Assembly (NCBI GenBank): GCA_046861655.1
Contig: JBHIAI010000002.1
Location: 41,873-105,872 of the forward strand
From: Fidelibacterota bacterium
GTDB taxonomy: Bacteria > Fidelibacterota > Marinisomatia > Marinisomatales > S15-B10
Reading direction: 5' to 3'
DNA: 64,000 bases
In this document: piece after piece, positions 1-31,006 of the stretch
Layout of the letters: the number at the start of each line of letters is the position of its first letter
How positions within the stretch are numbered: the stretch's first letter is position 1
Made by a program: the position numbers and the translations under genes
Notes under the pieces: model-generated
What the model was told of the DNA's origin: nothing
The model's input: only the letters and a program-made list of their open reading frames with translations
The model's database searches: none

Positions 1-387
1 GGTGCCACCCTTGAGGTAACGGGGACTCTGGATCAGACCACAGGGGATTTGGTGGCCGAAAGGATCAAGGTATTTCAGGTCGTCCTTACGGGTCAGGTGA
101 ATTCGGCCGTTGTAAACAATGAATTTGAACTCACCGATATCACCATTCTGGAGGGTAATGTTGACGTGAGCACCCTGTCCGGTATGGTCAGGTTGACGCC
201 AGATACTGAAGTGGAAGGGGAAGAAATTCCGGTTGGGGTCCGGGTGACGGTGACCGGAAATGTGGAACCCTCCACGGGTACGTTTGTGGCTTCCAGGATC
301 GTGGTGATCGTCACAGAAAGAGAGCTTATCGTGGACATGGAAGATAATCAGGGCCGGAAACGGGAGCTCGTCATCAGATTTCAATAG
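1..387 (+). CDS. 5'-truncated exported protein with DUF5666-like OB-fold repeats
   Basis: Frame 1 is open from base 1 (GATLEVTGTLDQTTGDLVAERIKV...). It has the repeated V.V.G.......F/LVA.RI pattern typical of DUF5666, and its stop overlaps the next start. Confidence 0.55.
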   Translation, partial: GATLEVTGTLDQTTGDLVAERIKVFQVVLTGQVNSAVVNNEFELTDITILEGNVDVSTLSGMVRLTPDTEVEGEEIPVGVRVTVTGNVEPSTGTFVASRIVVIVTERELIVDMEDNQGRKRELVIRFQ

Positions 388-3179
388 TGGAGATTTCCGT
401 GGGATCATTTTTCGCCAATGGGGTTGCCAGAAGGGCAGGATGGATCGCGGCGTTCGTGATTTTCAGGACTCTTGGGGCCTTTCAGGCCGGGGCTATCACT
501 CACTATCCTGTCCCTCAGCATACAGCCGATAGACCCCTGGAGATTAAGGCTACAGTTTCCATGGCGACAGAGGTGGACAGGATGGATCTCTTCTACCGCC
601 GGGCGGACGAAGATGGATTCATTGAGATAGAAATGGATGTCGTCCCCGACGGATGGCAGGGTCAAATCCCCCTCGGTTATCTGACGGAGGAGGGGATCGA
701 GTACTATATATCGGCCTCCCTGGAGGATGGTACTGTAGTGACGTTCCCTGCGCAGGATCCCGTGGGGAGTCCCCAAACAGTGAAGATTGTCATGCCTGAA
801 GCGTCTCAGCCGGAAATGGCGCGAAGAGAAACCATCGGTGAGGAAGCCATCCTCATTTTCAGTCCCGAGCCGGGATCCAGGGTGCCCACGGATGCCGTGC
901 TCGTTTCGGTATCCCTTTTCCATGTGGATTCGGTGGATGTTTCATCCGTACGGCTGGCAGTGGACGGTCAGGACGTGACGTCCCGGGCATCGGTTGGGAC
1001 TGACCTGGTTGTCTACGAACCCGTGTTGATGCCGCCGGGTTCTCACCGGGTACGTTTGACTGTGAAGACACTGGACGGTCGGGCCGTGGAGCCGAAATCG
1101 TGGTCATTCGACGTAACGGGCAAACTGGAGAAGGAAGTGGAGAGGGCTCTGACCTACGGGGGAAGGATCAACAGTGGGTATTCCCTGGATGCCATCGAGG
1201 GCCAGAGCCTGTCGATTGGGTTGACATCGGCTTCGGTGACCGGGAAGTGGCGGGGTTTAGACTTTAAGACCGATCTGAAGTTTACCACGGAGGAGGACCC
1301 CTTCAAGCAGCCCAGAAACCGGTACCAGTTCAAGGTGGATGCAGGACGGTATTTCAGTCTGAATCTGGGGGATTTCAACAGCAGGCTGTCGAGATTCACC
1401 CTGGATGGGAAGCGGGTCCGGGGTCTGGAGGCAAACCTGAAACTGGGTTGGGTGAATTTTCACCTGGTGAGAGGTGAGCTGGACCGTGTCATTCAGGGAC
1501 GCCTGGGGGTGAATCAATCCCTGTTTCTTGAGAGTGTTGAGGCGACACAGAATGAACAGGATTCCACGAAGACCGACATCATCTACCGGTTGAATCGAAA
1601 GGGCTTCACCTTTCGCAAGAACATCTCCGCCGCCCGGTTGAGCTTTGGAAAAGGGAGCCGGTTTCAACTGGGGTTTAACTGGCTTAAGGCCAAGGACGAC
1701 ATCGGTTCCGTTCAGCAGGCTCTCGATAAGGCTCTTATCGATGTGGACCGGGATTCTTCTGGTTCAATTCCCCTGGAGATCGCCGTAGGGCAGTACGAAT
1801 ACGGGGAATTGAGAAGTGAGATCGACAAGAGAGGAAACTACCGGCTGGTCCTGCCCGAAACAGATTGGGAGGGGGACGCTCCTCAGGATAATATCGTTCT
1901 GGGATCAGACATTCGCTTTTTCCTGGATCGAAAAAGGATAGGGTTTGAGGCCGGTTGGGCCTTCAGCATACTGAATAAGGACATCTGGGACGGTCCCTTC
2001 AGTCTCGCCGGCCTGGATACGCTCATGGACGATGAGCTGGATGGCAGAGCGGGCGATATTGACATCTCGGGTTTTCCTGATCCTTCCGAATATGAGGACA
2101 TTTTTGTTATCAATGAAAACATTGTGCCCCTTGTGCCCATAGACCCTGACTCCGCCCTGCTGGCGGATGATCCCCTGAAGGCGATCCTTAATATGCCTTC
2201 CCTCGCCTATTACCTTAAGGCTTCCGCCCGCTACCTTGGCAACCAGTTCAATTTCCAGTACATCAAGGTGGGGCCTGAATTCAATTCCCTGGGGAATCCC
2301 TACATTCAGGAGAATAACAGGGAATACTCCGTATCCGACCGGGTGGGGCTGTTTCGGAACAGATTCCTGGTACACGTAATCTACAAGCATCAAGACGATG
2401 ACATTCTGAGAACGGTGGAGAATGTGACCACCACCGAGACTTTCAGGACCAACCTGGGGCTCTACCCCGGGGGCGGCCTGCCCACCGTCACATTCAGTTT
2501 CCGCAATCAGGACAGGGATAACGGAAAAACCACGCTTGATACGGTGACTGTGGACACGGCAAACGGCAGAATCGACCTGGAGGACCTGCGGGACTTCACC
2601 CGGACTACCCACACCACCGTGGGCGTGAACCATCGCCTGGGGGCGTTGGGGATGGAGCACAATGTCTCGGTAAACTATGTTCAGCTTAAGCGTGCCGACC
2701 AGTATTACGAGGATGAGGACCGTCCCCTCCCACCCTTTTTCGAAGTGGTCGGCGGAGACAGTGTATTTGTCGATTCATCCTTCGTCTCTCCCAGTCTGAG
2801 TTCCCAGGTGACCAACGTAGCCCTGGTCACCGACTACCCCTTTGGCCTGAGAACCACCCTTACCGTGTCCATCAACAAAAGCACCTTCGGGGAAGAAGGT
2901 AGTGAGTTATACGATTACGGAGACCAGGACATCACGGGATTTACTCTTAAAGGGGACTATCGTATGTTGGACGGCCGCCTGGGACTTCGGGGTGGCGTGG
3001 AGATTACGAGTGGCTCGGGTATGGAGGAGTTTCGCCGTCTGGGGTTCGGAGCCGGATTCGGTTACAGAATCACCGATCTTCTCCGGTTCCGCTTTGACGG
3101 GAAACTCCGCTCCAAGAGCACCAACGGGGAGACAAAATCCAGCACCCTTCTTCGGGCCTCTTTGAATTATTCCTTCTAA
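387..3179 (+). CDS. Large outer-membrane beta-barrel protein with N-terminal Ig-like domains, function unknown
   Basis: 930 aa; signal-like N-terminus, beta-sandwich segments (LFYRR...IEYYISA), many amphipathic strands and a C-terminal ASLNYSF (BAM-type terminal Phe). Confidence 0.65.
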   Translation: MEISVGSFFANGVARRAGWIAAFVIFRTLGAFQAGAITHYPVPQHTADRPLEIKATVSMATEVDRMDLFYRRADEDGFIEIEMDVVPDGWQGQIPLGYLTEEGIEYYISASLEDGTVVTFPAQDPVGSPQTVKIVMPEASQPEMARRETIGEEAILIFSPEPGSRVPTDAVLVSVSLFHVDSVDVSSVRLAVDGQDVTSRASVGTDLVVYEPVLMPPGSHRVRLTVKTLDGRAVEPKSWSFDVTGKLEKEVERALTYGGRINSGYSLDAIEGQSLSIGLTSASVTGKWRGLDFKTDLKFTTEEDPFKQPRNRYQFKVDAGRYFSLNLGDFNSRLSRFTLDGKRVRGLEANLKLGWVNFHLVRGELDRVIQGRLGVNQSLFLESVEATQNEQDSTKTDIIYRLNRKGFTFRKNISAARLSFGKGSRFQLGFNWLKAKDDIGSVQQALDKALIDVDRDSSGSIPLEIAVGQYEYGELRSEIDKRGNYRLVLPETDWEGDAPQDNIVLGSDIRFFLDRKRIGFEAGWAFSILNKDIWDGPFSLAGLDTLMDDELDGRAGDIDISGFPDPSEYEDIFVINENIVPLVPIDPDSALLADDPLKAILNMPSLAYYLKASARYLGNQFNFQYIKVGPEFNSLGNPYIQENNREYSVSDRVGLFRNRFLVHVIYKHQDDDILRTVENVTTTETFRTNLGLYPGGGLPTVTFSFRNQDRDNGKTTLDTVTVDTANGRIDLEDLRDFTRTTHTTVGVNHRLGALGMEHNVSVNYVQLKRADQYYEDEDRPLPPFFEVVGGDSVFVDSSFVSPSLSSQVTNVALVTDYPFGLRTTLTVSINKSTFGEEGSELYDYGDQDITGFTLKGDYRMLDGRLGLRGGVEITSGSGMEEFRRLGFGAGFGYRITDLLRFRFDGKLRSKSTNGETKSSTLLRASLNYSF

Positions 3180-3405: not shown

Positions 3406-4338
3406 CTATCCCTCGAAAAGGAACAGGTCCGTATTGTCGCGGAAGGTGGAGTACAAAGCCTCCATGGAATCGATGACGAAGTAGCGATCCTGGATATCGC
3501 TGTAGTCAAACCGGGTAAGGACCACCTCCCCCACATCGAAGGGAAGGAACCTGGACCGGTTGGATTCGCCCGTGGCACAGGCGACCACGTTCATGACCTC
3601 ATCATACGACGAGATGATCCCTGACCCATAAATCTCATAATCAATGTTATTGGGGCTTTTCCGGATCTCATCGGTATGGTTCTGTTTTTTCATGACGCCG
3701 AATTCGTAGCTCCACCAGGCGAAATTTTGGAGGCGCTTCAGGTTGTGGGCAATCAGCTCGGGACCCATGCCCCGTTCATCGGTAATGAGTGCATAGCCCA
3801 GCTGGCCGATTTCCGCCAGAAAATCACCGTACTCCCTGTTGGTGAGAAAAGGAGAATGGCCCCGGATATCGTGAAAAATATCGGGTTCAGGCGTGTATTC
3901 GTCTGTGTTGCGAATGTCCTGTCCTGAGTATTTCTGCCGGAATCGCCCGGATTGACGAATGATGTCCGTAACGGGAAACTTCCGCTGACTGTTCAAGAGG
4001 AAGAAGAGATACTCATTGAGGAATCCGGCCACCGGTGTGAGCATCCAGCCGCTGGCCTGTTCCAGCACAGGAGTCAGGGTCTCGAAATTTGGCCATTCGT
4101 TCCTGGAGAGCCCCAGGGCTCTCAACCCCTGGAGGTATTCCTTCGATGCGTATTGATCAAGGGGATCCTCGAGACGATTGAACAGCCGTCGCCAGATCTC
4201 CCGTTCTTCATCACTGATAGCGCCGTAGTTCTGTTTTATGAGGTAGGGATCATTCTCCGTGAAAATCTTGATCCCTCCCACTGCGTGGGGTTTTACGTTC
4301 CTAAAAAGATGGTCGTATTTGGTGTGCACCTCCAGCAT
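3406..4338 (-). CDS. phhA: Biopterin-dependent aromatic amino acid hydroxylase (phenylalanine-4-hydroxylase-like)
   Basis: YTPEPDIFHDIRGHSPFL (two Fe-ligand His), WWSYEFG (Glu ligand), IYGSGIISS and YSDIQDRYFVIDS. Start placed at MLEVHT (4338); the ORF extends to 4359. Confidence 0.8.
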   Translation of the reverse strand: MLEVHTKYDHLFRNVKPHAVGGIKIFTENDPYLIKQNYGAISDEEREIWRRLFNRLEDPLDQYASKEYLQGLRALGLSRNEWPNFETLTPVLEQASGWMLTPVAGFLNEYLFFLLNSQRKFPVTDIIRQSGRFRQKYSGQDIRNTDEYTPEPDIFHDIRGHSPFLTNREYGDFLAEIGQLGYALITDERGMGPELIAHNLKRLQNFAWWSYEFGVMKKQNHTDEIRKSPNNIDYEIYGSGIISSYDEVMNVVACATGESNRSRFLPFDVGEVVLTRFDYSDIQDRYFVIDSMEALYSTFRDNTDLFLFEG

Positions 4339-4434
4339 GCACGGGAATTTACAACACAAATGATTTTTGTAAACCCCTTTATGGGGACCTTCCAGACGTC
4401 AGCTCCTGCCTCCGGCAGTGCAAAACCTTTTTTC

Positions 4435-4463
4435 TTGACATTTATTGGAAACGGGTTTACAAT
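4435..4463 (+). promoter_or_regulatory. sigma70-type promoter of the motor operon
   Basis: TTGACA (4435-4440), 17-bp spacer, TACAAT (4458-4463), about 55 bp upstream of the 4518 start. Confidence 0.75.
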
Positions 4464-4517
4464 TGTGGGAGCTCGATTGGTTTCCTAATCGTTTCGGGTT
4501 AAATCCGAGGTAATGGC

Positions 4518-5639
4518 GTGAATAAGTTTACTCAGTCTATCTGTACCTTTCTCGTAGTCTGCTCATTTGTCGCAACCGGGTATGCCGCTGACACGTACCG
4601 GATACAGGGGGTGATCCTCGACAGTGGTGGCGACAAGGTGGGCGGTGCACAGGTGGTTCTTTTAGACGCGGACGGTAACGAGGCAGACCAGACCTCCTCT
4701 TCAAAAGGCTTCCTGGGAAAAGGGAAGTTCGAGTTCGACGATCTCAATCCGGGCCGGTACACGGTGAAGGCGACGGCAGGGGAGGCAGGTTCGGCCTCCC
4801 TCGAAGTGGTGGTGGCCGAGGAAGACCGGGAAATTGAATTGACCCTGGCCCCTGTGGGGAAAGGTGAAGAAAACGGCGGTCAGGAAGAAGGTGAAAGAAT
4901 TCCCTCGGGGCGGGATGAATATGTCCTGAGCGAAATCAGTTTCGAACTGAAAAAACTAGGGGCTGAACTGGATCATCTTGGGAGCCAGATCAGGGATCTG
5001 CAAGCGAAGAGTGAGATGTGGACCAACCCCCTGTCCATCTACTCCAAGGAGATCATCCTGGAAAACGGCAGCACCGTTTTCGGGAAGGTCGTGTATCAAG
5101 ATGAAGATATTCTGAAAGTACAGACCCTGGTGGGAAATCTGGTTATCGACCGATCCCAGGTGGTTCGCATAGTGGAGAATGTTCAGGCGGAGGAAGAACC
5201 TGAATACGTTCCCGAGCAGATCCGGGAGACCTACAGTCCACCCCCCATGCCCAGGCTCGCCGAACCGAAGTACGTCGCCGTGACTCCTTCGGAGCGAATT
5301 CCCTCGGAGGTACGGGCGGCCAACGTGGTGCTGGTGGGTAACATTGCGGAGAATAAGGACAGGTCCGGAAACATCACCTTTCAGGGACAGCTCAAGAACC
5401 TTGGCGGCCGGCGGGCCGACTTTGTGAAGGTCAACTTTGTTTTCCGCAAGAACTGGAGCGGGGAGACCAAGACTCTCACCACCTTTGCCAAGGGATCTTA
5501 CCACACCTTTGATTCGGGCATTACCACCGACTCATCGTTGCTCCCCGGCGCCAGTGCCGCCTTCGAACTGGTGGTTCCTGCTGATTTTGGATCCTTCATC
5601 GGGTATTCCCCCACCATCGATTGGGAAGAGTACGAGTGA
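4518..5639 (+). CDS. Exported multidomain protein (carboxypeptidase-regulatory-like beta-sandwich, coiled coil, small SH3/Sm-like domain, C-terminal FxLYD-like Ig domain)
   Basis: Signal peptide ending GYA-A; IQGVILDSGG..VGGAQVVL...GKFEFDDLNPGRYTVKA; IILENGSTVFGKVV; FQGQLKNLGGRRADFVKVNFVF. Confidence 0.6.
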   Translation: MNKFTQSICTFLVVCSFVATGYAADTYRIQGVILDSGGDKVGGAQVVLLDADGNEADQTSSSKGFLGKGKFEFDDLNPGRYTVKATAGEAGSASLEVVVAEEDREIELTLAPVGKGEENGGQEEGERIPSGRDEYVLSEISFELKKLGAELDHLGSQIRDLQAKSEMWTNPLSIYSKEIILENGSTVFGKVVYQDEDILKVQTLVGNLVIDRSQVVRIVENVQAEEEPEYVPEQIRETYSPPPMPRLAEPKYVAVTPSERIPSEVRAANVVLVGNIAENKDRSGNITFQGQLKNLGGRRADFVKVNFVFRKNWSGETKTLTTFAKGSYHTFDSGITTDSSLLPGASAAFELVVPADFGSFIGYSPTIDWEEYE

Positions 5640-6535
5640 ACCGTCCGGTAGCGATTCCGTTGCTCTCAGGGGCTCTTCTTATTCTATGTACCTTGACCGG
5701 GGTACTAACGGGTCAGTCCTCGTCCGGATCTCCCGGGCCCTTGGGGGATGACATCTTCTTCCTGGACCTGGGCATCGTGATTGAACCGGGCACCGGCAAG
5801 GAAGAGGTTAACCGTCTGGTGAAGGCACCTCCGGAGAAGGTGAAATTCTTCCTGGACAAGGAACCCAGTGGTTCCGTCTACATGGCGTCAACCCGGGAGT
5901 TGCATGAGACGCTCGCCCGGATCAGCGACAGGATTGATGCCCTGGAGGAGTCCTTTCACCGGGAGATTACTGCTGTCCGGGTGGAGAATGGCGAGTTGCG
6001 GGAAATGGTGGCCGACCTCCTGGCCAGGGAACCCATTCTTCCCTCCCAACCTGCGGTGACCCCGGTTCCATCTTTGTCCACCCCACCCGTTTCCCGGGAG
6101 GAACAACCCGAACCGGAGGTGGAAGAAAAAGTCGTCGTTACCGCCCCTGCGGCGGACGGCTCTTTCAGCAAGATGAGATACATGAATGCCGTTTTCGCTT
6201 ACCAGAGGGAGGACTACCGGGTCGCCCTGGATCATTTTTCCCGGTTGTACCTGAAGGAGCAGGATCACACCACCAGAGGAAACGTGTTGTACTGGATTGC
6301 CGATTGCTACTATCAACTGGGAGATTACCGGAGAGCTCTCGACACCCTGGAGGAGATCAGATCCCTGGGCCGGTCGGACAAGCAGGATGACGCCCTGGTG
6401 TTGACCGGGCTGGCCTATCGCCAGATGGGTCGGGAAAACGAGGCCCTTGAGGCCTTTGATCATATCCTTCAGTACTATCCCGACAGCGAATACTTCAGGC
6501 TGGCCCGGATGGAGTTGCGGAAATCTCAGGAGTAG
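5636..6535 (+). CDS. CpoB/YbgF-like periplasmic coiled-coil + TPR protein
   Basis: Signal/TM segment, coiled coil (LARISDRIDALEE), Pro-rich linker, TPRs (NVLYWIADCYYQLGDY, DDALVLTGLAY, ILQYYPDSEY). The GTG start overlaps the upstream stop. Confidence 0.7.
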   Translation: MNRPVAIPLLSGALLILCTLTGVLTGQSSSGSPGPLGDDIFFLDLGIVIEPGTGKEEVNRLVKAPPEKVKFFLDKEPSGSVYMASTRELHETLARISDRIDALEESFHREITAVRVENGELREMVADLLAREPILPSQPAVTPVPSLSTPPVSREEQPEPEVEEKVVVTAPAADGSFSKMRYMNAVFAYQREDYRVALDHFSRLYLKEQDHTTRGNVLYWIADCYYQLGDYRRALDTLEEIRSLGRSDKQDDALVLTGLAYRQMGRENEALEAFDHILQYYPDSEYFRLARMELRKSQE

Positions 6536-6540
6536 TCCGT

Positions 6541-7908
6541 ATGGGTAAAACCCACAGATCCGGCGTGTTATTCCTGTTGATCTTGATGTCTGCGCCCCTG
6601 TTGGGCGTGACCCGGGTGGCGTTTACCCGTCCCGGACCCATGGTGAGAATTCCCATGACCCGCACCGTGCGGTCTCCCTATCTTTTCAGTGCAGGTTTCG
6701 GATCGGAGATTCACAATTTTTCCCCTTTCAATGTAGCCAAGGGTGTTTATTTCACCATGGACATATCCGAGAGATTCACCCTGGGATTCTCTTCAGGTCA
6801 GGGGGCGGACACCACCGCTCTGGAGAACATTCTGGAGTCCACCTATGCCCCCCCTGTTGAGTTCGGATTTCATTTCCAGCAGCGCGTTTACACCCGGGGA
6901 GACGTTTCTTTTAGTCTGGGCGTTCACGATGTGGTCTTTGAGAACGCAGATGACGGCTTAAGTCTCGACCCCAAGCAACTGTCTTTTTTCGGGATTATTG
7001 GTAGTGAGAAGTCCTTCGGTGATTATGATCTGCACACGTTTATGGGGTTTGGCACGGGAGGATTTGCCCAGACCCTCGCCACGGGTCAACCCGGAACCGC
7101 CGGGGAAGACACCGCCGGAACCCGGACCGGCGTATTCGCCGGGTTCTTGTTGAACACACCGTTCCTGCCCAAATGGGGTGGACTCGATTTTGTGGGTGAA
7201 TTCGACGGCTCAGGCATCAATGTGGGACTCCGCATCCCCCTTACCTCGGATTATCGCCTGAGTCTAGGATTCACCCACATAGAAAATTTGCCCGCTTTTT
7301 CCGAAGAACCTTATGGTCCCGATCACCCGGGTCTTGCGGTGGGGCTCGACATGTCGGTTCCGAGGGGACCGGTGGTCAGGGAGGTACCGGGTCTGCCCCG
7401 GCCCGGCGAGAGGGGCCCCGCCCCCGTTCCTGAAGCCGCCGTTCGTGACACAATCCTCTTGGCGGCCGATCTGGCAATGGCCAGACTCCGGGATTCTTTG
7501 CGGGTGGAAAAACACTACGTACGGAACCTGGCGACTCAGGTGGCCCGATTGGAGCAGAAAAGCCTCACCCTTGAAGATTCGGTGCGGGCGTTGAGGCTTG
7601 ATCGGGCGGTGAGTCAAAAGAACATCAACCTGGCCATGCAGCACCTGTCCCTTTCCCAGCGTTACGCCTTTGCGGGAGATTACCGGGCGGCTCTTCAGGA
7701 GGTGGAGACTGCCCTGGATTTGAACCCTAATCTGGCACTGGCTTACGCCCGGCGAGGGGCCATATACTATAAGTTGGGAGATATTCAACGGGCGACCATC
7801 AACTGGAATCTGGCTCTCCAGATGGATCCGGAATACGATGACGTGAGAAACATCTTGAAGGCTCTTCACGAGAACCGTTTGAAGGCCATCAGTTTCAACA
7901 AGGAGTAA
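6541..7908 (+). CDS. Predicted outer-membrane beta-barrel (YjbH-like) fused to coiled coil and C-terminal TPRs
   Basis: Signal peptide; beta-strand region (GVFAGFLL..., GEFDGSGINVGLRIPLTSDYRLSLGF); Pro linker; heptad coiled coil; TPR (ALDLNPNLALAYARRGAIYYKLG). Confidence 0.6.
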   Translation: MGKTHRSGVLFLLILMSAPLLGVTRVAFTRPGPMVRIPMTRTVRSPYLFSAGFGSEIHNFSPFNVAKGVYFTMDISERFTLGFSSGQGADTTALENILESTYAPPVEFGFHFQQRVYTRGDVSFSLGVHDVVFENADDGLSLDPKQLSFFGIIGSEKSFGDYDLHTFMGFGTGGFAQTLATGQPGTAGEDTAGTRTGVFAGFLLNTPFLPKWGGLDFVGEFDGSGINVGLRIPLTSDYRLSLGFTHIENLPAFSEEPYGPDHPGLAVGLDMSVPRGPVVREVPGLPRPGERGPAPVPEAAVRDTILLAADLAMARLRDSLRVEKHYVRNLATQVARLEQKSLTLEDSVRALRLDRAVSQKNINLAMQHLSLSQRYAFAGDYRAALQEVETALDLNPNLALAYARRGAIYYKLGDIQRATINWNLALQMDPEYDDVRNILKALHENRLKAISFNKE

Positions 7909-7916: not shown

Positions 7917-8702
7917 ATGGACATAGCCACGCTGGTAGGCATCGTGATCGGTTTAGGTGCTATTGGAGGGGGAATCTTCGTGGCCGCTGCTGCCGCCGGT
8001 GCGGGAGCTGAAGGATTCGTTTCCCTGCCGAGTTTCCTGATCGTGTTCGGAGGCATGGTGGCCTCAGTCTCGGTGGCCTTTCCCCTGCCGGAAGTAATGA
8101 AACTGGGGGCGGCCATGGGGGCGGTCTTCAAGGGAGGTTTGATCAGGCTGGGCGAGCTGGTGGATGATGCGGTGGAACTGGCAGGAGTGGCAAGGAAGGG
8201 TGCAGCCGAACTGGAAAAGGGTGTGGGAGACATCCGAAATCCTTTCTTCAGGGATGGCGTCCAGATGGTGGTGGACGGCTATTCCGAAGAGGAATTGGTT
8301 GAGATTCTGGAAACCCGTATCAGCTACCGGGAAGTCCGGGAACGGTCCCAGGCAAGTCTGTTTCAGACCATGGGGACCATGGCGCCAGCGTGGGGGATGA
8401 TTGGGACGCTCATCGGACTGGTTATCATGCTCATGGGATTCGGTGGAGGGGGAGGAACAGAAGCTCTCGGTTCAGGCATGTCCGCCGCCCTGATTACCAC
8501 CTTCTACGGAGCTGTGTTTGCCAATCTGTTCTTTCTCCCCATGGCGGCCAAGCTCAACTCGCGAATCGCTCACACCAGCACCATGCAGGCCATGCTGGTG
8601 GAGGCCGCCCGTTTGATTCATCAGAAAAAACACCCCCTTATCGTCCGGGAGAGACTCAACTCCTTCATTCCTCCCAAGGAATGGAAAAGGGAAGGGGAGT
8701 AA
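7917..8702 (+). CDS. motA: Stator A subunit, MotA/PomA family
   Basis: MDIATLVGIVIG; PSFLIVFGG; ARKGAAELE; NPFFRDGVQMVVDG; APAWGMIGTLIGLV; ALITTFYGAVFANLFFLPMAAKL. Confidence 0.93.
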   Translation: MDIATLVGIVIGLGAIGGGIFVAAAAAGAGAEGFVSLPSFLIVFGGMVASVSVAFPLPEVMKLGAAMGAVFKGGLIRLGELVDDAVELAGVARKGAAELEKGVGDIRNPFFRDGVQMVVDGYSEEELVEILETRISYREVRERSQASLFQTMGTMAPAWGMIGTLIGLVIMLMGFGGGGGTEALGSGMSAALITTFYGAVFANLFFLPMAAKLNSRIAHTSTMQAMLVEAARLIHQKKHPLIVRERLNSFIPPKEWKREGE

Positions 8703-8705: not shown

Positions 8706-9458
8706 GTGCCGAGAAAGCCTCAACCTCCTCCTCCTGAACCGGGTCTCCCCAATTGGTTTGCCACTTTTGCCGATATGATGACGCTTCTCCTGGCCTTTTT
8801 CGTTCTTCTGGCCGCCATTTCCACCATCGATCCCGTCAAACTTCAGGCCATGGCCGATTCCATGAAAAAATCAGTGGGAAAGAAAATAGAGATGGAGGGA
8901 GCCATGAGCCTGGCCGATATCGAGAAGGCGGTTAAGGTGATGGTGTCGCAGGAACAGATGGAGGAAGCTGTGGAAGTGACCACCAGCACCAAGGGTGTCA
9001 CCATCGGCATTTCATCGGACATCAGTTTCGAATCGGGTTCAGCGGACCTGAAACCCGGGATCATGCCCATTCTGGAAAAGATTGTTCCCACGATCGAGAA
9101 TTCGTATTTCCAGGTGGCTGTTGAGGGCCATACTGACAACGTGCCCATTTCGGACAATATCCGGGTGCGGTTTCCCTCTAACTGGGAACTGTCCGGCGCC
9201 CGGGCGGCTTCGGTGGTCCGGGAATTGATCGATATGGGCGTAGAACCCACACGTCTGCAGTCGGTGGGATATGCCGAATACATTCCGAGGGATCGGCCCA
9301 CGGACAGGCTCATCACGGATGAGCTTATCCTCGAGCTGAATGCAACCCCCGATCTTCAGGCCCGTAATCGCCGGGTGGAGATCACCTTTCTGGCTCCCCG
9401 GGGGGGGCCGGTGGGTAGCCACAGGGAGGAGTCGGAGCCGGAGGAGGGGGGAGAGTAA
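8706..9458 (+). CDS. motB: Stator B subunit, MotB/PomB family with OmpA-like peptidoglycan-binding domain
   Basis: WFATFADMMTLLLAFFVLL (conserved Asp), plug helix, FESGSADL, VEGHTDN, NWELSGARA, NRRVEI. Confidence 0.93.
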   Translation: MPRKPQPPPPEPGLPNWFATFADMMTLLLAFFVLLAAISTIDPVKLQAMADSMKKSVGKKIEMEGAMSLADIEKAVKVMVSQEQMEEAVEVTTSTKGVTIGISSDISFESGSADLKPGIMPILEKIVPTIENSYFQVAVEGHTDNVPISDNIRVRFPSNWELSGARAASVVRELIDMGVEPTRLQSVGYAEYIPRDRPTDRLITDELILELNATPDLQARNRRVEITFLAPRGGPVGSHREESEPEEGGE

Positions 9459-9485: not shown

Positions 9486-11063
9486 ATGAAACACAGGTTG
9501 AGGGGTATCCTTGGCGGGGGAGCCGTAGTTGCCGTTTTGGCTGTCCTCGCTGTGGGGCAGGAGTCCACGTTTCTGGCTCAGAAGCTCATGCTGGAAAACG
9601 ATTTAAGGAAGCGTATTACGGGAGCTCTTGAAAAAATCCTGGACGACCACCGTTACGTCCTGGATGTGACCGTGGATTTGAAGTTCACGCCCGCCGTTCG
9701 CGAGGAAGTGACATTCGCACCCGAGGAGGTCCCGGCCCAAGTAAAACCAGCTCTCAGAGAAAAGATGGGTGCTCGGGAACAACCAGAAGAGGTGGCGGGC
9801 CGGAAGAAGTCCCGGGTGACGGGACTTCCCATTCCGGGATTTGATTTTCAGGTGGAAGAGGAACCTGCGCCAGGGCTGGAGGAACCGTCTGCTGTTGAAA
9901 CCGAAAAGGAGGATGAATCCGTCCAGGAGGGACCGGCCAGAAAAGGGGCCAGAGTGATCCGCCAGTCCTATACGGACATCAGTACATCCATGCCGGTGAT
10001 CAGGAAGATGGAAATCAGCTGCATTCTCCCCGAGGGGTCCTCTCCTGAGCTCATCGAGAACGTTCGACAGATTATCATGGTGGCTTCCCATTTCGACCGG
10101 AGTCGCGGGGATGTCCTGAGTGTTATGACGGCGTCGTTCAAGGAGAGAAAGGACGAGAGGACGGCGGAGGCCATCATCTTAAGAAGTATTGCGGAAAAAA
10201 TTGATCAGCTTGAGGAGAGACAGGCGGAGACCGACGCTCAGGTAGTCGAGGACTGGCGCAGGGAGTTGGAACAGTGGAAACAGGAGGAATCCCGGCGCCA
10301 GGAGGAAGAACGGTCCGTCTGGCGAACCGAACTCGAAAGGCTGGAGAATGACCGCCTTCGTCGGGAATTTGAACGGGAAAAAAGAGCCATTCTGGAGCGT
10401 GATTCCCTGGAACTGGCAGCCTTAACTCAGGAAATCGATGAGTTAAGAGCCATGCTGACCACCGCCGATCTGACGCCTCAAGAGCAACAGACGGCTCAGG
10501 ATCAGGTGGCGATCAAGGAGAGGAAGCGGGCTCAGATCGACTCTGTGATTGATGAGAAACTGGCTTTTCTTGAGGAGACCCGCCAGGAAATGAGGGAACT
10601 GGACAGGGCAGGAGTGAGCAATCTCCCCATTTATCTGATGAGTGCTATTTCGCTTCTGGCCGTAGCTGCCCTGGCGGCGGTGATCATTTTCAACGGCCGG
10701 AGTCGTCCCCGTTATATGGTACCCCCTCCATGGCTCATGAGGCCGCCCAGCAAAAAAAAAGTGACTAAGGAGAAAAAAGAGGATGAGGACAAGGGCGAGG
10801 GACCCAAGGCGGCGCCGCCTCCCCCACCTCCGCCCACGCCCCCGGAACCGGAAGAAGATCCCAGTGTCCTCCAGTCAGAAATCAAATCTATGCGGCAGTC
10901 CATTGTGTCCATGAGCGTGGGACAGCCCGAGACGGCCACCGATATCGTTAAAGAGTGGTTGGAAGAAGAAGCGCCCGCACCTCCCGAGGAAGCGCCGGCG
11001 GCCGTAACTCCCCCTTCCCCCGAAGAAAAGGATGAGGGGAAAAAGAAAAAGAAGAAAAAGTAG
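9486..11063 (+). CDS. FliF-like ring protein (RBM3/beta-collar + coiled coil + TM + FliG-binding C-terminus)
   Basis: LENDLRKRITGALEKILDDHRYVLDVTVDLKF and IRKMEISCIL...IENVRQIIMVASHFDRSRGDVLSVMTASF resemble the two halves of FliF RBM3. TM LPIYLMSAISLLAVAALAAVIIF. Tail QPETATDIVKEWLEEE. Confidence 0.75.
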   Translation: MKHRLRGILGGGAVVAVLAVLAVGQESTFLAQKLMLENDLRKRITGALEKILDDHRYVLDVTVDLKFTPAVREEVTFAPEEVPAQVKPALREKMGAREQPEEVAGRKKSRVTGLPIPGFDFQVEEEPAPGLEEPSAVETEKEDESVQEGPARKGARVIRQSYTDISTSMPVIRKMEISCILPEGSSPELIENVRQIIMVASHFDRSRGDVLSVMTASFKERKDERTAEAIILRSIAEKIDQLEERQAETDAQVVEDWRRELEQWKQEESRRQEEERSVWRTELERLENDRLRREFEREKRAILERDSLELAALTQEIDELRAMLTTADLTPQEQQTAQDQVAIKERKRAQIDSVIDEKLAFLEETRQEMRELDRAGVSNLPIYLMSAISLLAVAALAAVIIFNGRSRPRYMVPPPWLMRPPSKKKVTKEKKEDEDKGEGPKAAPPPPPPPTPPEPEEDPSVLQSEIKSMRQSIVSMSVGQPETATDIVKEWLEEEAPAPPEEAPAAVTPPSPEEKDEGKKKKKKK

Positions 11064-11072: not shown

Positions 11073-12002
11073 ATGATTACCGATTACAATCGTTTGTCCG
11101 GCCTGGATAAGGTGGCCATCCTTTTCTCTGTACTGGGAGAAGGTCTGGCGGTGAAAGTTGTGAAGGGACTGGAAGAGGCGGACCTGCGGCGGATCCGGGC
11201 TCGCGTCCGTGAAATGGAGGCAGTGTCTACGTCGGTAAAGAAGAAGGTCGTGGACCAATTCTACCTGGCGTTCGTATCCAGGAAACTGGAGGATGAGACC
11301 GGCGGAGACACCAAACGGCCCTTTGCCTTCTTGGAAAACTTAGCCGACGAACAGCTGGGAGCCCTCCTGGAAGTGGAAGAACCGAGAATCATTGCCATGG
11401 CTCTGGCTCAGGTGCCTACCGACAGGCAGGTTTTTGTGATGGCCCGCCTGACACCGGAAACGAAGGGGCAGGTGCTTATGGAAATGGGCAACCTGGGGAA
11501 TGTTCCCCTGGAGGCCGTGGTCACTGTGGCTACGGATCTGGAGAAAAAATCCCACTTCCTTCCCCGTGGTGTGGACTTCTCCCGGGGAGGGGGTAAGAAC
11601 GTGGCTGATATTCTTGAGAAACTTTCCCCTGAGGAAGGAGAAAAGTTTCTGGAAGCCATCGCCCGGGAGTCTCCTGACCTGGCCAAAGAGATCAAGAGAT
11701 ATCACCTTACCTTCGACGACGTGTTCAGATTTCCCGACAGCCTCTTGAGGGACCTCATGAATTCGGTGGAGCTGGATACAGTGGCCTTGGCCATGAAGGG
11801 TCAATCCGAGGAGATTGTTGACCGGGTTATCAGTAACCTTCCCCAGAAGAAACAGGCCATGTACGAGCCGGTGGAACGAGCGGTTCCCAAAAGGGAGGTG
11901 GATAACGCCAGAAAAGCCATTGTGGATGCTGCCCGGCAGATGGAAAAGGACGGACGCATTAATCTGGAAGATATTCTGGGTGGCAGCGAAATGGTGGAAT
12001 AG
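11073..12002 (+). CDS. fliG: FliG-like rotor protein (shortened)
   Basis: LSGLDKVAILFSVLG (N domain), RPFAFL, EEPRIIAMAL (EHPQ position), GGGKNVADIL, PDLAKEIK..HLTFDD (MFxF position), VALAMKG, final helix IVDAARQMEKDGRI. Confidence 0.88.
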   Translation: MITDYNRLSGLDKVAILFSVLGEGLAVKVVKGLEEADLRRIRARVREMEAVSTSVKKKVVDQFYLAFVSRKLEDETGGDTKRPFAFLENLADEQLGALLEVEEPRIIAMALAQVPTDRQVFVMARLTPETKGQVLMEMGNLGNVPLEAVVTVATDLEKKSHFLPRGVDFSRGGGKNVADILEKLSPEEGEKFLEAIARESPDLAKEIKRYHLTFDDVFRFPDSLLRDLMNSVELDTVALAMKGQSEEIVDRVISNLPQKKQAMYEPVERAVPKREVDNARKAIVDAARQMEKDGRINLEDILGGSEMVE

Positions 12003-12842
12003 GTGTCTTTGTTCCGTCCTCGGTCAAGAAGCCTTCCCTGGGAAAGGACGGGAAGGCTTTTTCATATCTTTCCTGTGAGATTGGGAGCCCTGGGACTGAT
12101 GGCAGTGGTGTCCACGGGTGTCTCCGGAAAACCTTCCCCCGTTACTCCGGGGGGAGAGGCCGGTTGGGAACGATCCCTCGCAGCCTCGTTTTCCACCCAG
12201 GGCGGAAACACCAATCTGTCCAGTTACGCCCTGGCCTTTACGGTGGATTATACGGGGGATCTCCGTGTAGCAGGCGTGGATTTCAACGACAGTGAGTTCC
12301 ACGCGTTCGTCCGTCATAAACGGGGGAAACTGGACAGGTCTTTATATGAAGACGATGGGAGTGCGTCCTTGCTGTTTGACATCATGGCCCATGGCAAATT
12401 CTCCCCTTTTTTCCTTTCTTACTGGGCCTACGATTCCACCACGGGCCTCGATGAACGAATTCAGCTCGGAGCTGGAGGCAAGTACACCGTCGCCGGGGGA
12501 TTCTCCCTGAGCCTTGCCTATCTGTTTGAGGTGGAGGGCTATAAGGGTGAGTCCAGAACCCGGCAGTATCGATTGTCGTTTCGACCCAAGTACAAGAGGA
12601 CCTTCTCCAGCGGTGTGTCCCTTAACACCCTGGTATTCATCCAGCCCCTGGTCCTGGATCCCGGCAGATTTCTCATTGACAGCCATGTGAGTGTGACCGT
12701 TCCCACCCCGGTGAAGATACTGGCAGATGACAAGAAACTCGAGGTGACTCTGAGGTGGAGGGAACAATTCAACTCCCGTCCCCCCGGTTCGGTCCAGAAG
12801 CGGGACAGCGATCTTGACCTTGGCCTGATGATTTCGTTTTAG
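12003..12842 (+). CDS. DUF481-like outer-membrane beta-barrel protein
   Basis: S/T-x-GNT motif (FSTQGGNTN), GLDERIQLGAGGKY, FNSRPPGSVQKRD..L.LGLMISF with terminal Phe. The true start may be slightly downstream. Confidence 0.65.
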   Translation: MSLFRPRSRSLPWERTGRLFHIFPVRLGALGLMAVVSTGVSGKPSPVTPGGEAGWERSLAASFSTQGGNTNLSSYALAFTVDYTGDLRVAGVDFNDSEFHAFVRHKRGKLDRSLYEDDGSASLLFDIMAHGKFSPFFLSYWAYDSTTGLDERIQLGAGGKYTVAGGFSLSLAYLFEVEGYKGESRTRQYRLSFRPKYKRTFSSGVSLNTLVFIQPLVLDPGRFLIDSHVSVTVPTPVKILADDKKLEVTLRWREQFNSRPPGSVQKRDSDLDLGLMISF

Positions 12843-12860: not shown

Positions 12861-14279
12861 ATGGAAAAGGAAATCCACGAGTTGAATCTGGAGGGAACCA
12901 CCTTCCGGACCATCATTGAACCGTTCAGAATCAAGTCTGTGGAACCCATCCGGATCACCACCCGGGATGAGAGGGAAACGATTCTTCAACAGGCCTTCTA
13001 CAATGTGTTTCTCATCCGGTCCAGGGACGTTATCATCGATCTTCTCACCGACAGCGGTACCAACGCCATGAGTTCGGACCAGTGGAGCGGAATAATGCGA
13101 GGCGATGAGACCTACGCCGGTAGTGAGAGCTATGGCCGTTTTGAGAATACGGTCAAGGATATCTTCGGATTCAAGCATGTCATTCCGACCCACCAGGGAA
13201 GAGCCGCCGAGAGGATTCTGTTTACGGTCATGTGCCGGCCGGGAGATGTGGTTCCCAACAACACCCACTTCGACACCACCCGGGCCAACGTAGAATTCCG
13301 GGGAGCGGTGGCGAAAGATCTCCCCATTGAAGAAGGGCGAGATCCCCAGAATCCCCATCCGTTCAAGGGGAACATGGACCTGGCAAAACTGGAGGCACTG
13401 ATCACCCGGGAGGGGAAGGAAAAGATTCCCCTTTGCATGGTGACGATCACCAACAACTCCGGGGGAGGCCAGCCGGTGTCCATGGAGAACCTACGGGCCA
13501 CGAAGACCCTGGTATCCCGGTATGGGATTCCCCTCTACCTGGACGCATGCCGGTTCGCTGAGAATGCTTATTTGATTAAGTTAAGGGAAAAAGGGTACGA
13601 GAATAAGCCGGTCAGGGAGATCGTGGCGGAAATGATGAGCTACGCCGACGGGTGCACCATGAGTGCCAAAAAGGACGGCCTGGCCAACATCGGAGGATTT
13701 CTCTGCACCAACGATGATCTTCTGGCCCGGCAGGAAAGGGACCTTCTGATTCTCACTGAAGGCTTTCCCACCTACGGGGGCATGGCGGGAAGGGACCTGG
13801 AGGCCATCGCCATCGGTCTGGAAGAGGCGATTCACGAAGATTATCTCATCTACCGGATTGCCGAAACCCAGTACTTGGGGAAACACCTGGAGGAAATAGG
13901 GTTTCCCATTGTGCAACCCCCGGGAGGTCACGCCGTATACGTGGATGCTAACGCCACGTTACCCCATATGGATCCTCTGGAATACCCCGGTCAGGCTCTG
14001 ACGGCTGAACTTTACCTTGCAGGGGGGATCAGGGCGGTGGAAATTGGGTCCGTCATGTTCGGGAAGGAAGACCCGGAGACGGGAAAGGAACAACCGGCGG
14101 CCATGGAGTTGGTTCGACTTGCCATTCCCCGGCGGGTGTACACGCAGAGTCATATCGATTATGTCATTGAGGTGTGCAAGAGAGTCTGGAAACGCCGGGA
14201 ATCTCTCAAAGGGTTTCGAATCACTGAACAGGCCCCGTTTCTTCGTCACTTTACCGCTAAGTTTGAACCCCTTGATTAG
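12861..14279 (+). CDS. tnaA: Tryptophanase (beta-eliminating lyase; tyrosine phenol-lyase not excluded)
   Basis: EPFRIKSVEPI, IDLLTDSGT, THQGRAAE, TITNNSGGGQPVS, MSAKKDG (PLP Lys), EGFPTYGG, RLAIPRRVYT, LRHFTA. Confidence 0.85.
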   Translation: MEKEIHELNLEGTTFRTIIEPFRIKSVEPIRITTRDERETILQQAFYNVFLIRSRDVIIDLLTDSGTNAMSSDQWSGIMRGDETYAGSESYGRFENTVKDIFGFKHVIPTHQGRAAERILFTVMCRPGDVVPNNTHFDTTRANVEFRGAVAKDLPIEEGRDPQNPHPFKGNMDLAKLEALITREGKEKIPLCMVTITNNSGGGQPVSMENLRATKTLVSRYGIPLYLDACRFAENAYLIKLREKGYENKPVREIVAEMMSYADGCTMSAKKDGLANIGGFLCTNDDLLARQERDLLILTEGFPTYGGMAGRDLEAIAIGLEEAIHEDYLIYRIAETQYLGKHLEEIGFPIVQPPGGHAVYVDANATLPHMDPLEYPGQALTAELYLAGGIRAVEIGSVMFGKEDPETGKEQPAAMELVRLAIPRRVYTQSHIDYVIEVCKRVWKRRESLKGFRITEQAPFLRHFTAKFEPLD

Positions 14280-23461: not shown

Positions 23462-25000
23462 CTAATGTCTGAAACAGCGTGTGCTGGTGAAAACCATGGC
23501 GATTCCATGTTCATTGCAGGCCTGGATCACCTCCTGGTCCCGGACGGATCCACCCGGCTGGATGACGGCCCGAATGCCGGTGGTGGCTATGCGGTCGATG
23601 CTGTCGCGGAAAGGGAAAAATGCGTCGGAGGCCAGAACCGTGTCCCCGATCCGGTTCCCCGATTTCCTCACAGCGATGTCCACGGCGTCAATGCGGGATA
23701 CCTGGCCCGAGCCGATCCCAACGGTGGTATGATTTTTCGCCGTCAAGATGGCGTTTGATTTCACGTATGTAAGGACTTTCCAGGCAAACAGCATGTCGTC
23801 GATCTGTTCGTCCCCCGGCTTCGCCTCGGTTACTGAATTCAAGTGTTCACGTGTCACGGTGTTCACGTTTTTTTCCTGCAGCAAGAGGCCTCCGGCCACC
23901 TGTCTGAATTCCAGTCCTGCTCGTGAACCTGTGATCTCACCTACTTCCAGAACCCTCAGATTCTTTTTCTTGCCAAAGATTTCCCGTGCTTCCGGTTCAT
24001 AGCCGGGGGCGAGGACAATCTCGATGAAGATTTTCCTGAGGTACTCAGCGATCTCCCGGGTGCATAGGCGGTTCAGCGCCACGATGCCTCCAAAGGCAGA
24101 CAGGGAATCGGCCTCGAAGGCCCGTATGAAACAGTCGGTAATATCGCGACCAGAGGCGGCACCGCAGGGATTGGCATGCTTTACCACCACACAGGCAGGC
24201 TCTGAGAACTCCTGGACGCAGGCCAGGGCACCATCGGCATCCATAATGTTGTTATAGGACAGCTTTTTCCCCTGATGGATTCTTGCCTTCAGAATGGAGG
24301 GATCCTTGAACTGAGGATCCGCGTAGGCGGATGCCTGCTGGTGCGGGTTCTCCCCGTACCGTAGGTGGGAATGTCTGTCGAAGGTGAGCGTCAGGGAGTC
24401 CCCCATAGGGGTGTCATGGAGATAGTTGTGGATGAGAGTATCGTAGCGGGCCGTATGACCGAAGGCCTTAGCCGACAGCCGCTTCCGGGTCGAATAGGTG
24501 AGGCCCCCCTCTTTATTCAATTCCTCAACCAGGAGGGGATAGTCCGCGGGATCCACTACCACACCAACCCATCCCACGTTCTTGGCGGCGCTCCGGATCA
24601 TGGCCGGTCCACCGATATCGATGTCTTCGAGGACCTCGTCCAGGGGAATGTCGTCTCTTAGTATGGTCCTGTCAAAGGGGTAGAGGTTACATACCACGAG
24701 GTCGATCCAGGGTATGCCCTGTTCTTGGGCAGAAGATTCGTGGCTATCCCGGAGTCCGAGGATGCCTCCGTGGATATTGGGGTGGAGGGTCTTTACCCGG
24801 CCGTCCATGATTTCCGGTGAGCCGGTGACCTCCGACACTCCGGTAGTGGGGATTCCGGCTTCTGTTAGTACTTTGGCCGTTCCCCCGGTTGAGATGATAC
24901 GGACGCCCAAGCGGGTCAGCTCTTCTGCGAGTCCGACAATCCCCGACTTGTTGAAAACGGAGATTAAGGCACGTCGGATGGGAATAATCTCTTCGTTCAT
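23462..25000 (-). CDS. purH: Bifunctional AICAR transformylase/IMP cyclohydrolase
   Basis: RALISV, STGGT, GRVKTLHP, IDIGGP, LRYGENPHQ, KHANPCG, ASDAFFPF. Start set at MNEE (25000) because the ORF extension reads through a repeat. Confidence 0.95.
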   Translation of the reverse strand: MNEEIIPIRRALISVFNKSGIVGLAEELTRLGVRIISTGGTAKVLTEAGIPTTGVSEVTGSPEIMDGRVKTLHPNIHGGILGLRDSHESSAQEQGIPWIDLVVCNLYPFDRTILRDDIPLDEVLEDIDIGGPAMIRSAAKNVGWVGVVVDPADYPLLVEELNKEGGLTYSTRKRLSAKAFGHTARYDTLIHNYLHDTPMGDSLTLTFDRHSHLRYGENPHQQASAYADPQFKDPSILKARIHQGKKLSYNNIMDADGALACVQEFSEPACVVVKHANPCGAASGRDITDCFIRAFEADSLSAFGGIVALNRLCTREIAEYLRKIFIEIVLAPGYEPEAREIFGKKKNLRVLEVGEITGSRAGLEFRQVAGGLLLQEKNVNTVTREHLNSVTEAKPGDEQIDDMLFAWKVLTYVKSNAILTAKNHTTVGIGSGQVSRIDAVDIAVRKSGNRIGDTVLASDAFFPFRDSIDRIATTGIRAVIQPGGSVRDQEVIQACNEHGIAMVFTSTRCFRH

Positions 25001-25022
25001 AACGGTGCTATGATCCTCACTC

Positions 25023-25103
25023 CTGTCCCCCTGAGCTTGACGAAGGGTGACCACGCCAAAACCCACCTTTCCTGTCATGCTTCGTCAAGCTCAGCATGAC
25101 AGG
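25023..25103. repeat. Pair of inverted REP-like palindromic elements between purN and purH
   Basis: CTGAGCTTGACGAAG (25031-25045) is inverted as CTTCGTCAAGCTCAG (25080-25094). The second copy lies in the hairpin CCTGTCATGC...GCATGACAGG. Confidence 0.75.
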
Positions 25104-25130
25104 GGGTTCACCGGAGTTCACTGTTTGTGG

Positions 25131-25730: not shown

Positions 25731-25792
25731 GCCTGCCGACCCCCGGTTTTTCTGTATTGGCTGTCGTTATGAATATTCAAATCCTCCGGAGT

Positions 25793-27154: not shown

Positions 27155-27197
27155 TTTTTCACCACCGGGACACGGAGACACTGATCATGACTTATAG

Positions 27198-27575: not shown

Positions 27576-27603
27576 TTTCTCCGTGTCTCAGTGTCTTTGT
27601 GGT

Positions 27604-29079: not shown

Positions 29080-29080
29080 G

Positions 29081-30448: not shown

Positions 30449-30550
30449 AGAGGTTGCCTACTGTTTGGATGAATAAGGTTTTCGACCCCAGCATGCAGAG
30501 AGGTTTTGGTGAACCACGTGATATTCTTGGGTTATTCCTTCTGACGAATA

Positions 30551-30958: not shown

Positions 30959-30979
30959 TGCATGGTCAGGGTTCTTACA

Positions 30980-31006
30980 TCCCCCCGACCCCCTTCAAAG
31001 GGGGAC
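30980..31006. repeat. Short GC-rich REP-like hairpin between purC and purE
   Basis: TCCCCCCGACCCCCTTCAAAGGGGGAC. Confidence 0.45.

Follow-up and report, generated by a model that had tools for sequence, protein, structure and literature searches.

The torque core of the flagellum comprises MotA5B2 or PomA5B2 stators and FliG carried on FliF, a two-anchor protein, and to our knowledge this FliF/FliG/MotAB core is known only within the flagellum. Large rings of ring-building motif (RBM) domains without the full FliF domain set occur in the sporulation channel of Firmicutes (SpoIIIAG) and in injectisomes (SctJ/YscJ), for which we know of neither a FliG-binding tail nor a stator partner. Other 5:2 motors (GldLM/PorLM, Tol and Ton) have no FliG/FliF rotor ring, and their periplasmic link is the stator B subunit or TolA/TonB. 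Here we analyzed a 64,000-nucleotide stretch of DNA (hereafter, the window) from a Fidelibacterota bacterium (assembly GCA_046861655.1, contig JBHIAI010000002.1, forward-strand positions 41,873 to 105,872), which carries an operon of seven genes in the order g3 (periplasmic), g4 (tetratricopeptide repeat, TPR), g5 (outer-membrane barrel-TPR), MotA', MotB', FliF' and FliG', where primes mark the relatives of flagellar proteins. We propose, with a probability of about 0.5, that this operon encodes an ion-driven envelope machine independent of the flagellum, in which FliF' is the subunit that forms the rotor ring.

As in the flagellar torque core, the four proteins are all present and their genes adjacent, with the torque and channel residues kept. 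The locus differs from it in having no FliM/FliN, export apparatus, rod, hook or filament, in the decay of the FliM-binding motif and in that the four genes share an operon with three envelope proteins not known from flagella. Compared with FliF itself (6sd1, 6scn, 8z5v and 8z4d), FliF' has the same RBM3 fold (Z = 12-14, 17-24% identity), C-terminal transmembrane (TM) helix, linker and presumed FliG-binding type of tail, and its gene likewise lies directly upstream of fliG. It lacks RBM1 and RBM2, however, and has a probable cleaved signal instead of an N-terminal TM helix, a probably disordered insert with the motif GLPIPGFDF for the beta-collar, about 150 extra helical residues before the TM helix and a poly-Lys end. 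The published literature covered as full text (subscription journals and supplements lie outside this coverage) contained no account of the operon or of such a FliF, and the accessible portions of PMC11652737, PMC12505986 (a phylogeny of MotAB), PMC5596340 and PMC13277936 do not mention the operon.

The open reading frame at 9486-11063 is a genuine gene, and its layout is the one read from it in the initial annotation: a signal or TM segment, an RBM3 split by an insert, a region rich in Glu, Arg and Lys, a TM helix, a Pro-rich linker and a FliF-type tail are each present (Table 1). That annotation had further described the periplasmic part as an RBM3 without RBM1 and RBM2, and our searches bear this out. 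The sole Pfam family found in FliF' was PF08345 (YscJ_FliF_C), which spanned residues 48-218 and the entire profile (1-147 of 147; E = 1.5e-6; 29.1 bits against a cut-off of 23.8), while PF01514, the family of RBM1 and RBM2, had no match in FliF' at E ≤ 0.01 and none across the whole genome. The FliF equivalog TIGR00206 aligned residues 32-233 to model positions 240-449 of 555 with 27.8 bits and did not reach its cut-off of 129.75. An AlphaFold2 model of the monomer, based on an alignment of 26 homologs (mean predicted local distance difference test score, pLDDT, 69.8), forms RBM3 from a helix up to residue 48, strands 58-67, 71-77, 157-164 and 170-182, a helix at 187-200 and a strand at 210-216, and continues with helices 227-326 and 331-374, a hydrophobic helix at 380-403 and helices within 459-495. 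When this model was compared to the PDB with Foldseek, all 18 matches at E ≤ 0.001 were RBM3 or S-ring chains of FliF (E = 3.2e-7 to 3.3e-5), FliF being one of the two proteins that the initial annotation had named for comparison. VIA-align superposed it on Vibrio FliF 255-452 over 101 residues (Z = 14.0; root mean square deviation (r.m.s.d.), 1.8 Å; 24% identity). Because model residues 23-219 align to Salmonella FliF 228-438 (Z = 13.6), the mature N-terminus of FliF' would coincide with the start of RBM3. With no RBM1 or RBM2, the protein would therefore have no housing for an export gate. SpoIIIAG and SctJ were not among the Foldseek or VIA-align matches listed, an absence that excludes neither; FliF' differs from SpoIIIAG in its motAB-fliG context, as opposed to spoIIIA, and in that Pfam gives only the FliF C-terminal family.

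The missing export gate, also part of the earlier description, has its counterpart in the genome of the window (2.06 Mb in 198 contigs, 92.8% complete), where FlhA, rod proteins, the FliM/FliN C-terminal domain and flagellin had 0 matches. None of 13 family genomes, among them that of the window, had a FliP match, and CheW was found in one of the 13, a genome other than that of the window. PF08345 matched once in the genome of the window, and FliG_C has a single real match there. Another FliG_C match is weak (22.5 bits, under the cut-off) and falls in a 511-aa frame (G000:C93:2549-5722), which may encode an MgtE-type protein with an N-domain related to FliG.

Part of the phylum appears to be flagellated, as FlhA was above the cut-off in 49 of 201 phylum genomes of at least 85% completeness. 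In all five flagellated relatives tested (G134, G178, G190, G203 and G228), a canonical FliF (PF08345 at 104-129 bits) adjoins a canonical FliG (134-144 bits), and a FliF'/FliG' pair lies elsewhere in the same genome (24-40 and 61-74 bits). With the FliF' profile, each of the five genomes yielded one match, so the profile does not pick up canonical FliF. The operon is present in families without FlhA (0/9 genomes in f4 and 0/10 in f17; f5 has 1/26, below the cut-off and with stops), and families with FlhA in 2/2 (f13) and 5/5 (f30) genomes are nearly without FliF' (0/10 and 1/9, respectively). Given this independent distribution and the coexistence with canonical FliF and FliG, FliF' and FliG' are a paralogous system, neither a remnant nor an accessory of the flagellum. 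The homology of the four core proteins to flagellar ones and the flagellated members of the phylum would be expected if the operon were a decaying flagellar remnant or an accessory ring of a true flagellum. That explanation is nevertheless so improbable that we rejected it, considering that the frames are intact and under strong purifying selection, that synteny with three non-flagellar genes is phylum-wide, that the operon occurs in families without FlhA and is missing from flagellated ones and that it coexists with a separate canonical FliF and FliG.

The seven genes were found in the same order in 56 of 80 related loci, and MotA'-MotB'-FliF'-FliG' in 70. Among the 24 incomplete loci, 20 end at a contig end and four have no detectable g4. 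All ten genomes from nine other families of Fidelibacterota have the same order; in such distant operons FliF' is the fastest-evolving member (bit scores 97-287) and g5, g3, FliG' and MotA' score 219-498. Overall, the FliF' profile matched 258 of 401 phylum genomes (139 of the 190 that are of high quality), in 95 of 114 genera. Homologs are named as Fidelibacterota, Candidatus Marinimicrobia or Neomarinimicrobiota, the exceptions in locus labels being one SAR86 (a 2.9-kb contig) and one 'FCB group'. Matches in family f17, within the phylum, are also weak (E = 1e-7 to 1e-20), as weak as those of the most distant relatives, and the relatives examined gave no evidence of the family outside Fidelibacterota. 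Relative to an 80%-identical ortholog, the ratio of non-synonymous to synonymous substitution rates (dN/dS) was 0.10 overall, 0.04 in RBM3 and 0.02 in the tail, at a dS of ~1 that is near saturation, and the TM helix had no non-synonymous change. Judged by these ratios, FliF' is under strong purifying selection.

Kyte-Doolittle windows above 1.6 cover residues 4-31, and the protein has two hydrophobic segments in all (4-31 and 375-406). In the N-terminal segment, Gly, Ala or Ser stands at -1 of the conserved Gln25 in 72 of 77 orthologs and Gln at +1 in 72 of 77, with an uncharged run of 14 residues in the median (range, 8-20; 77 orthologs). This pattern, judged heuristically, is probably that of a cleaved Sec signal and suits a membrane anchor less well. 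Arg and Lys residues, and beyond them the FliG-type tail, come after the second segment, which is therefore predicted to run N-out, C-in, and mature FliF' would hang from one C-terminal anchor.

Between the two halves of RBM3 lies an insert that presumably occupies the place of the FliF beta-collar. The initial annotation had counted a beta-collar among the features of the protein, and this is the element that found no support: residues 78-156 are rich in Pro, Glu and Lys, are modelled in the monomer without strands or other secondary structure (pLDDT 31-46), vary in length from 48 to 134 residues (87 orthologs) and have a dN/dS of 0.34 versus 0.04 for the RBM3 halves. A monomer model of this kind may still be compatible with collar strands that arise within a ring alone. 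Inside the insert, P115, I116, P117, G118, F119 and F121 of GLPIPGFDF are invariant in 26 sequences, and P117, which is the Pro in the IPG core, is nearly invariant across 13 sequences that include the most distant relatives (at least 90%). Such a pattern suggests a flexible tether that carries a short docking peptide, and not a collar.

The same annotation had seen a coiled-coil stalk of ~150 aa that holds the ring far from the inner membrane and serves as a drive shaft. About 150 residues are indeed helical in the model (pLDDT 84-97 over residues 231-370, mostly above 90) and 46% of those in the spacer (227-374) are charged. The coiled coil fared less well, as heptad periodicity is modest (47 of 2000 shuffles match the 3.5-residue power seen over 227-374) and a hydrophobic a/d core is almost missing from residues 264-298. 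Model residues ~284-375 instead superpose on antiparallel helical hairpins (Z = 9.4-10.7; r.m.s.d., 2.6-3.3 Å; 78-91 residues), the best being the ING4 dimerisation domain (Z = 10.7; r.m.s.d., 2.8 Å; 89 residues), with CHMP4B, the LSD1 tower and LipC at Z = 9.4-9.9; such Z values are commonplace for helical matches and describe the shape of the model alone. With this hairpin, the reach of the spacer is probably well below the ~22 nm of 148 extended helical residues. From RBM3 to the TM helix the spacer measures 163 aa in the median (range, 46-194; 87 orthologs), with 162-166 aa in the orthologs of the same order that are shown, 131-194 aa in other families and just 46 aa in one family. The last of these is a natural short-spacer variant, encoded by a 404-aa frame (L091, G001:C50, 8336-9547) in an otherwise complete operon.

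A drive shaft would call for an extended ~22-nm stalk that sets the RBM3 ring under the outer membrane. The high confidence of 148 helical residues, a length tightly held within the order and around the same median over 87 orthologs and the outer-membrane protein in the operon are what such a stalk would predict. Set against these are the modelled hairpin, the stretch without a heptad core and the spacers of 46 aa in one family and 131-194 aa in others, and a ring of ~25 nm would have to cross the peptidoglycan from an operon with no P-ring-like or lytic partner. We therefore regard the drive shaft as improbable.

On the cytoplasmic side, PPPW just inside the membrane (10722-10733 of the window) and the poly-Lys C-terminus (11040-11060) are conserved through the family, and neither is known to have a counterpart in canonical FliF. 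The poly-Lys end might keep the FliG'-bound tail at the anionic membrane surface.

The torque and channel residues of FliG', MotA' and MotB' were counted by alignment column over 75-77 orthologs. All 75 orthologs of MotA' have R93, K94, E100, P157 and P208, and channel Asp23 of MotB' is found in 76 of the 76 orthologs with a residue at that place. In FliG', whose residues were placed by alignments to solved FliG, K242 is kept in 77 of 77 orthologs, K259 and K260 in 76 of 77, E265 in 92%, E268 in 95% and R274 in 95%; we take K242, K259/K260, E265/E268 and R274 to be at the places of E. coli K264, R281, D288/D289 and R297, respectively. Judged from these alignments, the torque and ion-channel residues are retained in MotA'B' and FliG'. 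The equivalent of the EHPQ motif, as aligned to Thermotoga FliG, is E-E-P-R in FliG', and that of the FliM-binding EHPQR is poorly kept beyond the first Glu (34% at position 103, 68% for P104 and 74% for R105). This decay of the FliM-binding motif fits the finding of no FliM.

The FliF-type character of the tail held up. Residues 467-493 align with the C-terminus of Vibrio FliF (chain residues 552-578) colinearly with the RBM3 match, an alignment that is non-significant when taken alone (domain i-E, 41). Docking of FliF' 452-500 on FliG' 1-95, the N-domain to which the tail had been expected to bind, was predicted at 0.49, compared to 0.00 for the best of three controls, which amounts to weak support. 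Of 157 solved complexes, 116 pass the mark for docking, 18 of them at 0.60 or below; of 215 mismatched pairs, 2 pass, both in that lower range (the counts are approximate, as the alignments were custom). Contact agreement between runs was at least 88% and the pLDDT of the partner at least 67. Because a comparable complex of the FliF C-terminus with the FliG N-domain has already been solved, the pass may show likeness more than binding. Elsewhere, one of the Atlas clusters of FliG proteins has PF08345 in 22% of its members, and proteins of 542-2000 aa included no fused relative of FliG' at E ≤ 0.001, which is weak evidence.

FliF' is the sixth of seven close-packed genes on the plus strand, separated by gaps of 3-27 bp with one 19-bp overlap (g3/g4). 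Upstream, nine promoter-like sites were counted versus 4.3 ± 2.0 in shuffles, the site in Table 1 being the best. The N-domain of g3 matched PF13620 (E = 4.2e-10) and 62 orthologs are 52-80% identical to g3; the solved structures in the PDB included no sequence relative of g3, and its nearest Atlas clusters are Fidelibacterota in every case. Pfam TPR families matched g4, whose best NCBIfam model was TIGR02795 (tol_pal_ybgF) at 46.4 bits, below the cut-off of 90.1. It is the most divergent member of the operon and is tandemly duplicated in five of ten distant operons (L091-L094 and L096), giving an eight-gene version. The AlphaFold2 model of g5 (pLDDT 59) has a barrel of ~14 strands, a long helix at 304-377 and a TPR, and its best Foldseek matches were OmpT, FapF, a type 9 translocon chain of 6h3i, OmpG and NanC (E = 1e-5 to 1e-3). 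MotA' scored 185 and 155 bits with the MotP and PomA models of NCBIfam, below their cut-offs, and FliG' 115.4 bits with TIGR00207, short of its cut-off of 226.7.

The operon shares with GldLM/PorLM, TolQRA-Pal-CpoB and ExbBD-TonB the idea of an inner-membrane ion motor linked through the periplasm to outer-membrane or TPR proteins, and g4 resembles CpoB. The same parts could work without continuous rotation, the FliF'/FliG' platform relaying force or a conformational signal from MotA'B' to the outer envelope as in TolQRA-Pal-CpoB or ExbBD-TonB. The CpoB/YbgF layout of g4 and its best NCBIfam match, the barrel of g5 with its periplasmic TPR and an operon that encodes no axial or propeller part would all suit such a platform. 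We nevertheless consider it unlikely, since the operon has a stator of the flagellar PomA/MotP kind, including the plug of MotB, and not one of the TolQ/ExbB kind, and the torque helix of FliG' and the matching charges of MotA' are almost invariant. Those charges serve rotation in the flagellum. In addition, the genome has two more loci of the MotA_ExbB family, which possibly serve Tol and Ton.

Alternatively, the motor could energise secretion or gliding of type IX secretion system (T9SS) kind in place of GldLM/PorLM. Thirty-one open reading frames of the genome carry a T9SS C-terminal sorting domain (CTD) above the cut-off (for example, on contigs C57, C41 and C138), GldM (TIGR03517 and PF12081) was undetected both in this genome and in 201 of 201 phylum genomes, and a 6h3i chain is among the structural neighbours of the g5 barrel. 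But the barrel match is generic, and the GldM searches, which matched no control genome either, say nothing on absence. CTD proteins were found in 201 of 201 genomes, including those of FliF'-poor families (18/18 in f3, 3/3 in f12, 2/2 in f13 and 20/20 in f26), and since they are present in families without FliF' as well, this cargo is independent of the operon. We disfavoured the T9SS role on these grounds and hold it to be very unlikely.

Under the reading we prefer, a rotor for an ion-driven envelope machine, FliF' would be exported by Sec, probably lose its signal and be held in the inner membrane by its one C-terminal TM helix, with the helical spacer bearing the single RBM3 in the periplasm. 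By homology to the S-ring of FliF, RBM3 would form a large ring around an empty centre, there being no RBM1/2, export gate or rod. Each subunit would dock one FliG' on its conserved cytoplasmic tail, and PomAB-like MotA'5B'2 stators, fixed to the peptidoglycan through MotB', would push the charged helix of FliG' and turn the ring. Because there is no FliM/FliN and no chemotaxis input, rotation would be one-way. The output of the ring would pass to the envelope proteins g5, g4 (CpoB-like) and g3, for which the best candidate link is a set of ~30 flexible loops, each with a GLPIPGFDF, that would bind g4 or the near-invariant TPR of g5. The analysis shows the domain layout, the purifying selection, the paralogy to the true flagellum, the conserved operon and the retained torque and channel residues; the assembly of the ring and its rotation, as well as its partner and cargo, are inferred. 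Taken as a whole, a rotary machine of a new kind, in which a gate-less, rod-less RBM3 ring is spun one way through FliG' and its loops grip the TPR of g5 or g4 so that ion-motive force is converted to movement or remodelling of the outer membrane, is a tentative proposal that we hold less firmly than the rotor role of FliF'.

Several points weigh against the rotor. Ring formation and rotation are argued from homology, and FliF' and FliG' score so far below their equivalog cut-offs (27.8 versus 129.75 and 115.4 versus 226.7) that function need not be conserved. Docking of the tail on the N-domain of FliG' has the weak support given above, the link between the GLPIPGFDF loops and a partner is a proposal and a stable FliG' ring would have to form without FliM/FliN. 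Whole families are without the FliF' operon (0/37 in f3, which has small genomes, 0/8 in f12 and 0/10 in f13; f26 has 5/33), which makes it dispensable. Finally, Fidelibacter multiformis, the one cultured representative of the phylum, has been described as lacking motility (PMC11652737), which would bear on the rotor if that strain carries the operon.

Around the operon, g10 directly follows FliG' (Table 1) and was next to the operon in five of 80 loci, all from near relatives, for which reason we consider it peripheral. An open reading frame of 178 aa at 3952-4488 (+) was taken as spurious because it has no family and overlaps the genuine hydroxylase gene on the minus strand. This minus-strand gene also separates the operon from g1 (387-3179, +), which is kept beside it in the nearest relative (L007) alone and was not accepted as a member; g1 encodes 930 aa with a weak bacterial Ig-like match and a C-terminal Phe like that of many outer-membrane barrels. 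Downstream, a beta-eliminating lyase gene (12861-14279, +), which in many related loci comes directly after FliG', has no evident functional link. Farther along the window are a purine-biosynthesis run on the minus strand (23462-38012; purH, purD, purB, purC, purQ/purL/purM types and purA) and a gene (47592-48839, +) for a 415-aa protein in which a cupredoxin (plastocyanin/azurin-like) domain is joined to cytochrome c domains.

Table 1. Positions in the window of FliF', its parts, the other operon genes and adjacent features
Feature	Positions	Strand	Details
FliF' gene	9486..11063	+	ATG start, 525 aa
Probable Sec-type signal peptide, residues 1-24	9486..9557	+	Ends just ahead of conserved Gln25 (72/77 orthologs)
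RBM3 first half, residues 25-77	9558..9716	+	Helix and two strands; Pfam, AlphaFold2 model and structure match
Low-complexity, probably disordered insert, residues 78-156	9717..9953	+	At the place of the FliF beta-collar; pLDDT 31-46; dN/dS 0.34
Conserved motif GLPIPGFDF in insert, residues 113-121	9822..9848	+	6/9 residues invariant; candidate docking peptide
RBM3 second half, residues 157-220	9954..10145	+	Two strands, helix, strand; ELIENVRQ and RGD motifs
E/R-rich helical spacer, residues 227-374	10164..10607	+	284-326 and 331-375 modelled as antiparallel hairpin
Single TM helix of mature protein, residues 380-403	10623..10694	+	Predicted N-out, C-in from Arg/Lys cluster after helix
Cytoplasmic linker, residues 404-455	10695..10850	+	Conserved PPPW (413-416), Lys run, Pro run
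FliF-type C-terminal helices, residues 456-497	10851..10976	+	Presumed FliG'-binding tail; helices 459-495; dN/dS 0.02
Poly-Lys C-terminus, residues 519-525	11040..11060	+	Kept within family
Divergent Biopterin_H hydroxylase gene	3406..4359	-	Aromatic amino-acid hydroxylase type, E = 1e-24
Sigma-70-like promoter	4435..4463	+	TTGACA, 17 nt, TACAAT; 11/12 consensus; in 158-bp gap upstream of g3
g3	4518..5639	+	Secreted, 373 aa; CarboxypepD_reg/transthyretin-like N-domain, short coiled coil, highly conserved C-domain
g4	5621..6535	+	Secreted, 304 aa; coiled coil and C-terminal TPR, CpoB/YbgF-like layout
g5	6541..7908	+	Predicted outer-membrane beta-barrel (~40-275), periplasmic helix 304-377, near-invariant C-terminal TPR
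MotA' stator subunit, PomA/MotP-like	7917..8702	+	PF01618, E = 3.9e-28
MotB' stator subunit, plug and OmpA-like peptidoglycan-binding domain	8706..9458	+	PF13677, E = 2.5e-18; PF00691, E = 3.7e-14
FliG' N, M and C domains	11073..12002	+	309 aa; PF01706/PF14842/PF14841
g10, DUF481 outer-membrane barrel	12003..12842	+	PF04338, E = 1.8e-5; 0-bp gap after FliG'

In most sampled genera of Fidelibacterota (SAR406), then, the flagellar rotor and stator core is maintained by selection together with three envelope proteins and without export, axial or switch parts, and the operon probably builds an undescribed ion-driven machine, not a flagellum. If the ring rotates, the flagellar engine would have a second use, and structural and biophysical studies would gain a minimal rotor provided by nature. 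For the origin of the flagellar motor, the operon indicates that the type III export apparatus is not required for a rotor and stator to function, and, if our reading is true, the flagellum could even have been assembled from an engine of this kind. The operon also points to an envelope function yet to be named in a major group of ocean heterotrophs, and the proposed mechanism, if true, would couple ion-motive force to movement or remodelling of the outer membrane in a very abundant bacterial group of the dark ocean.

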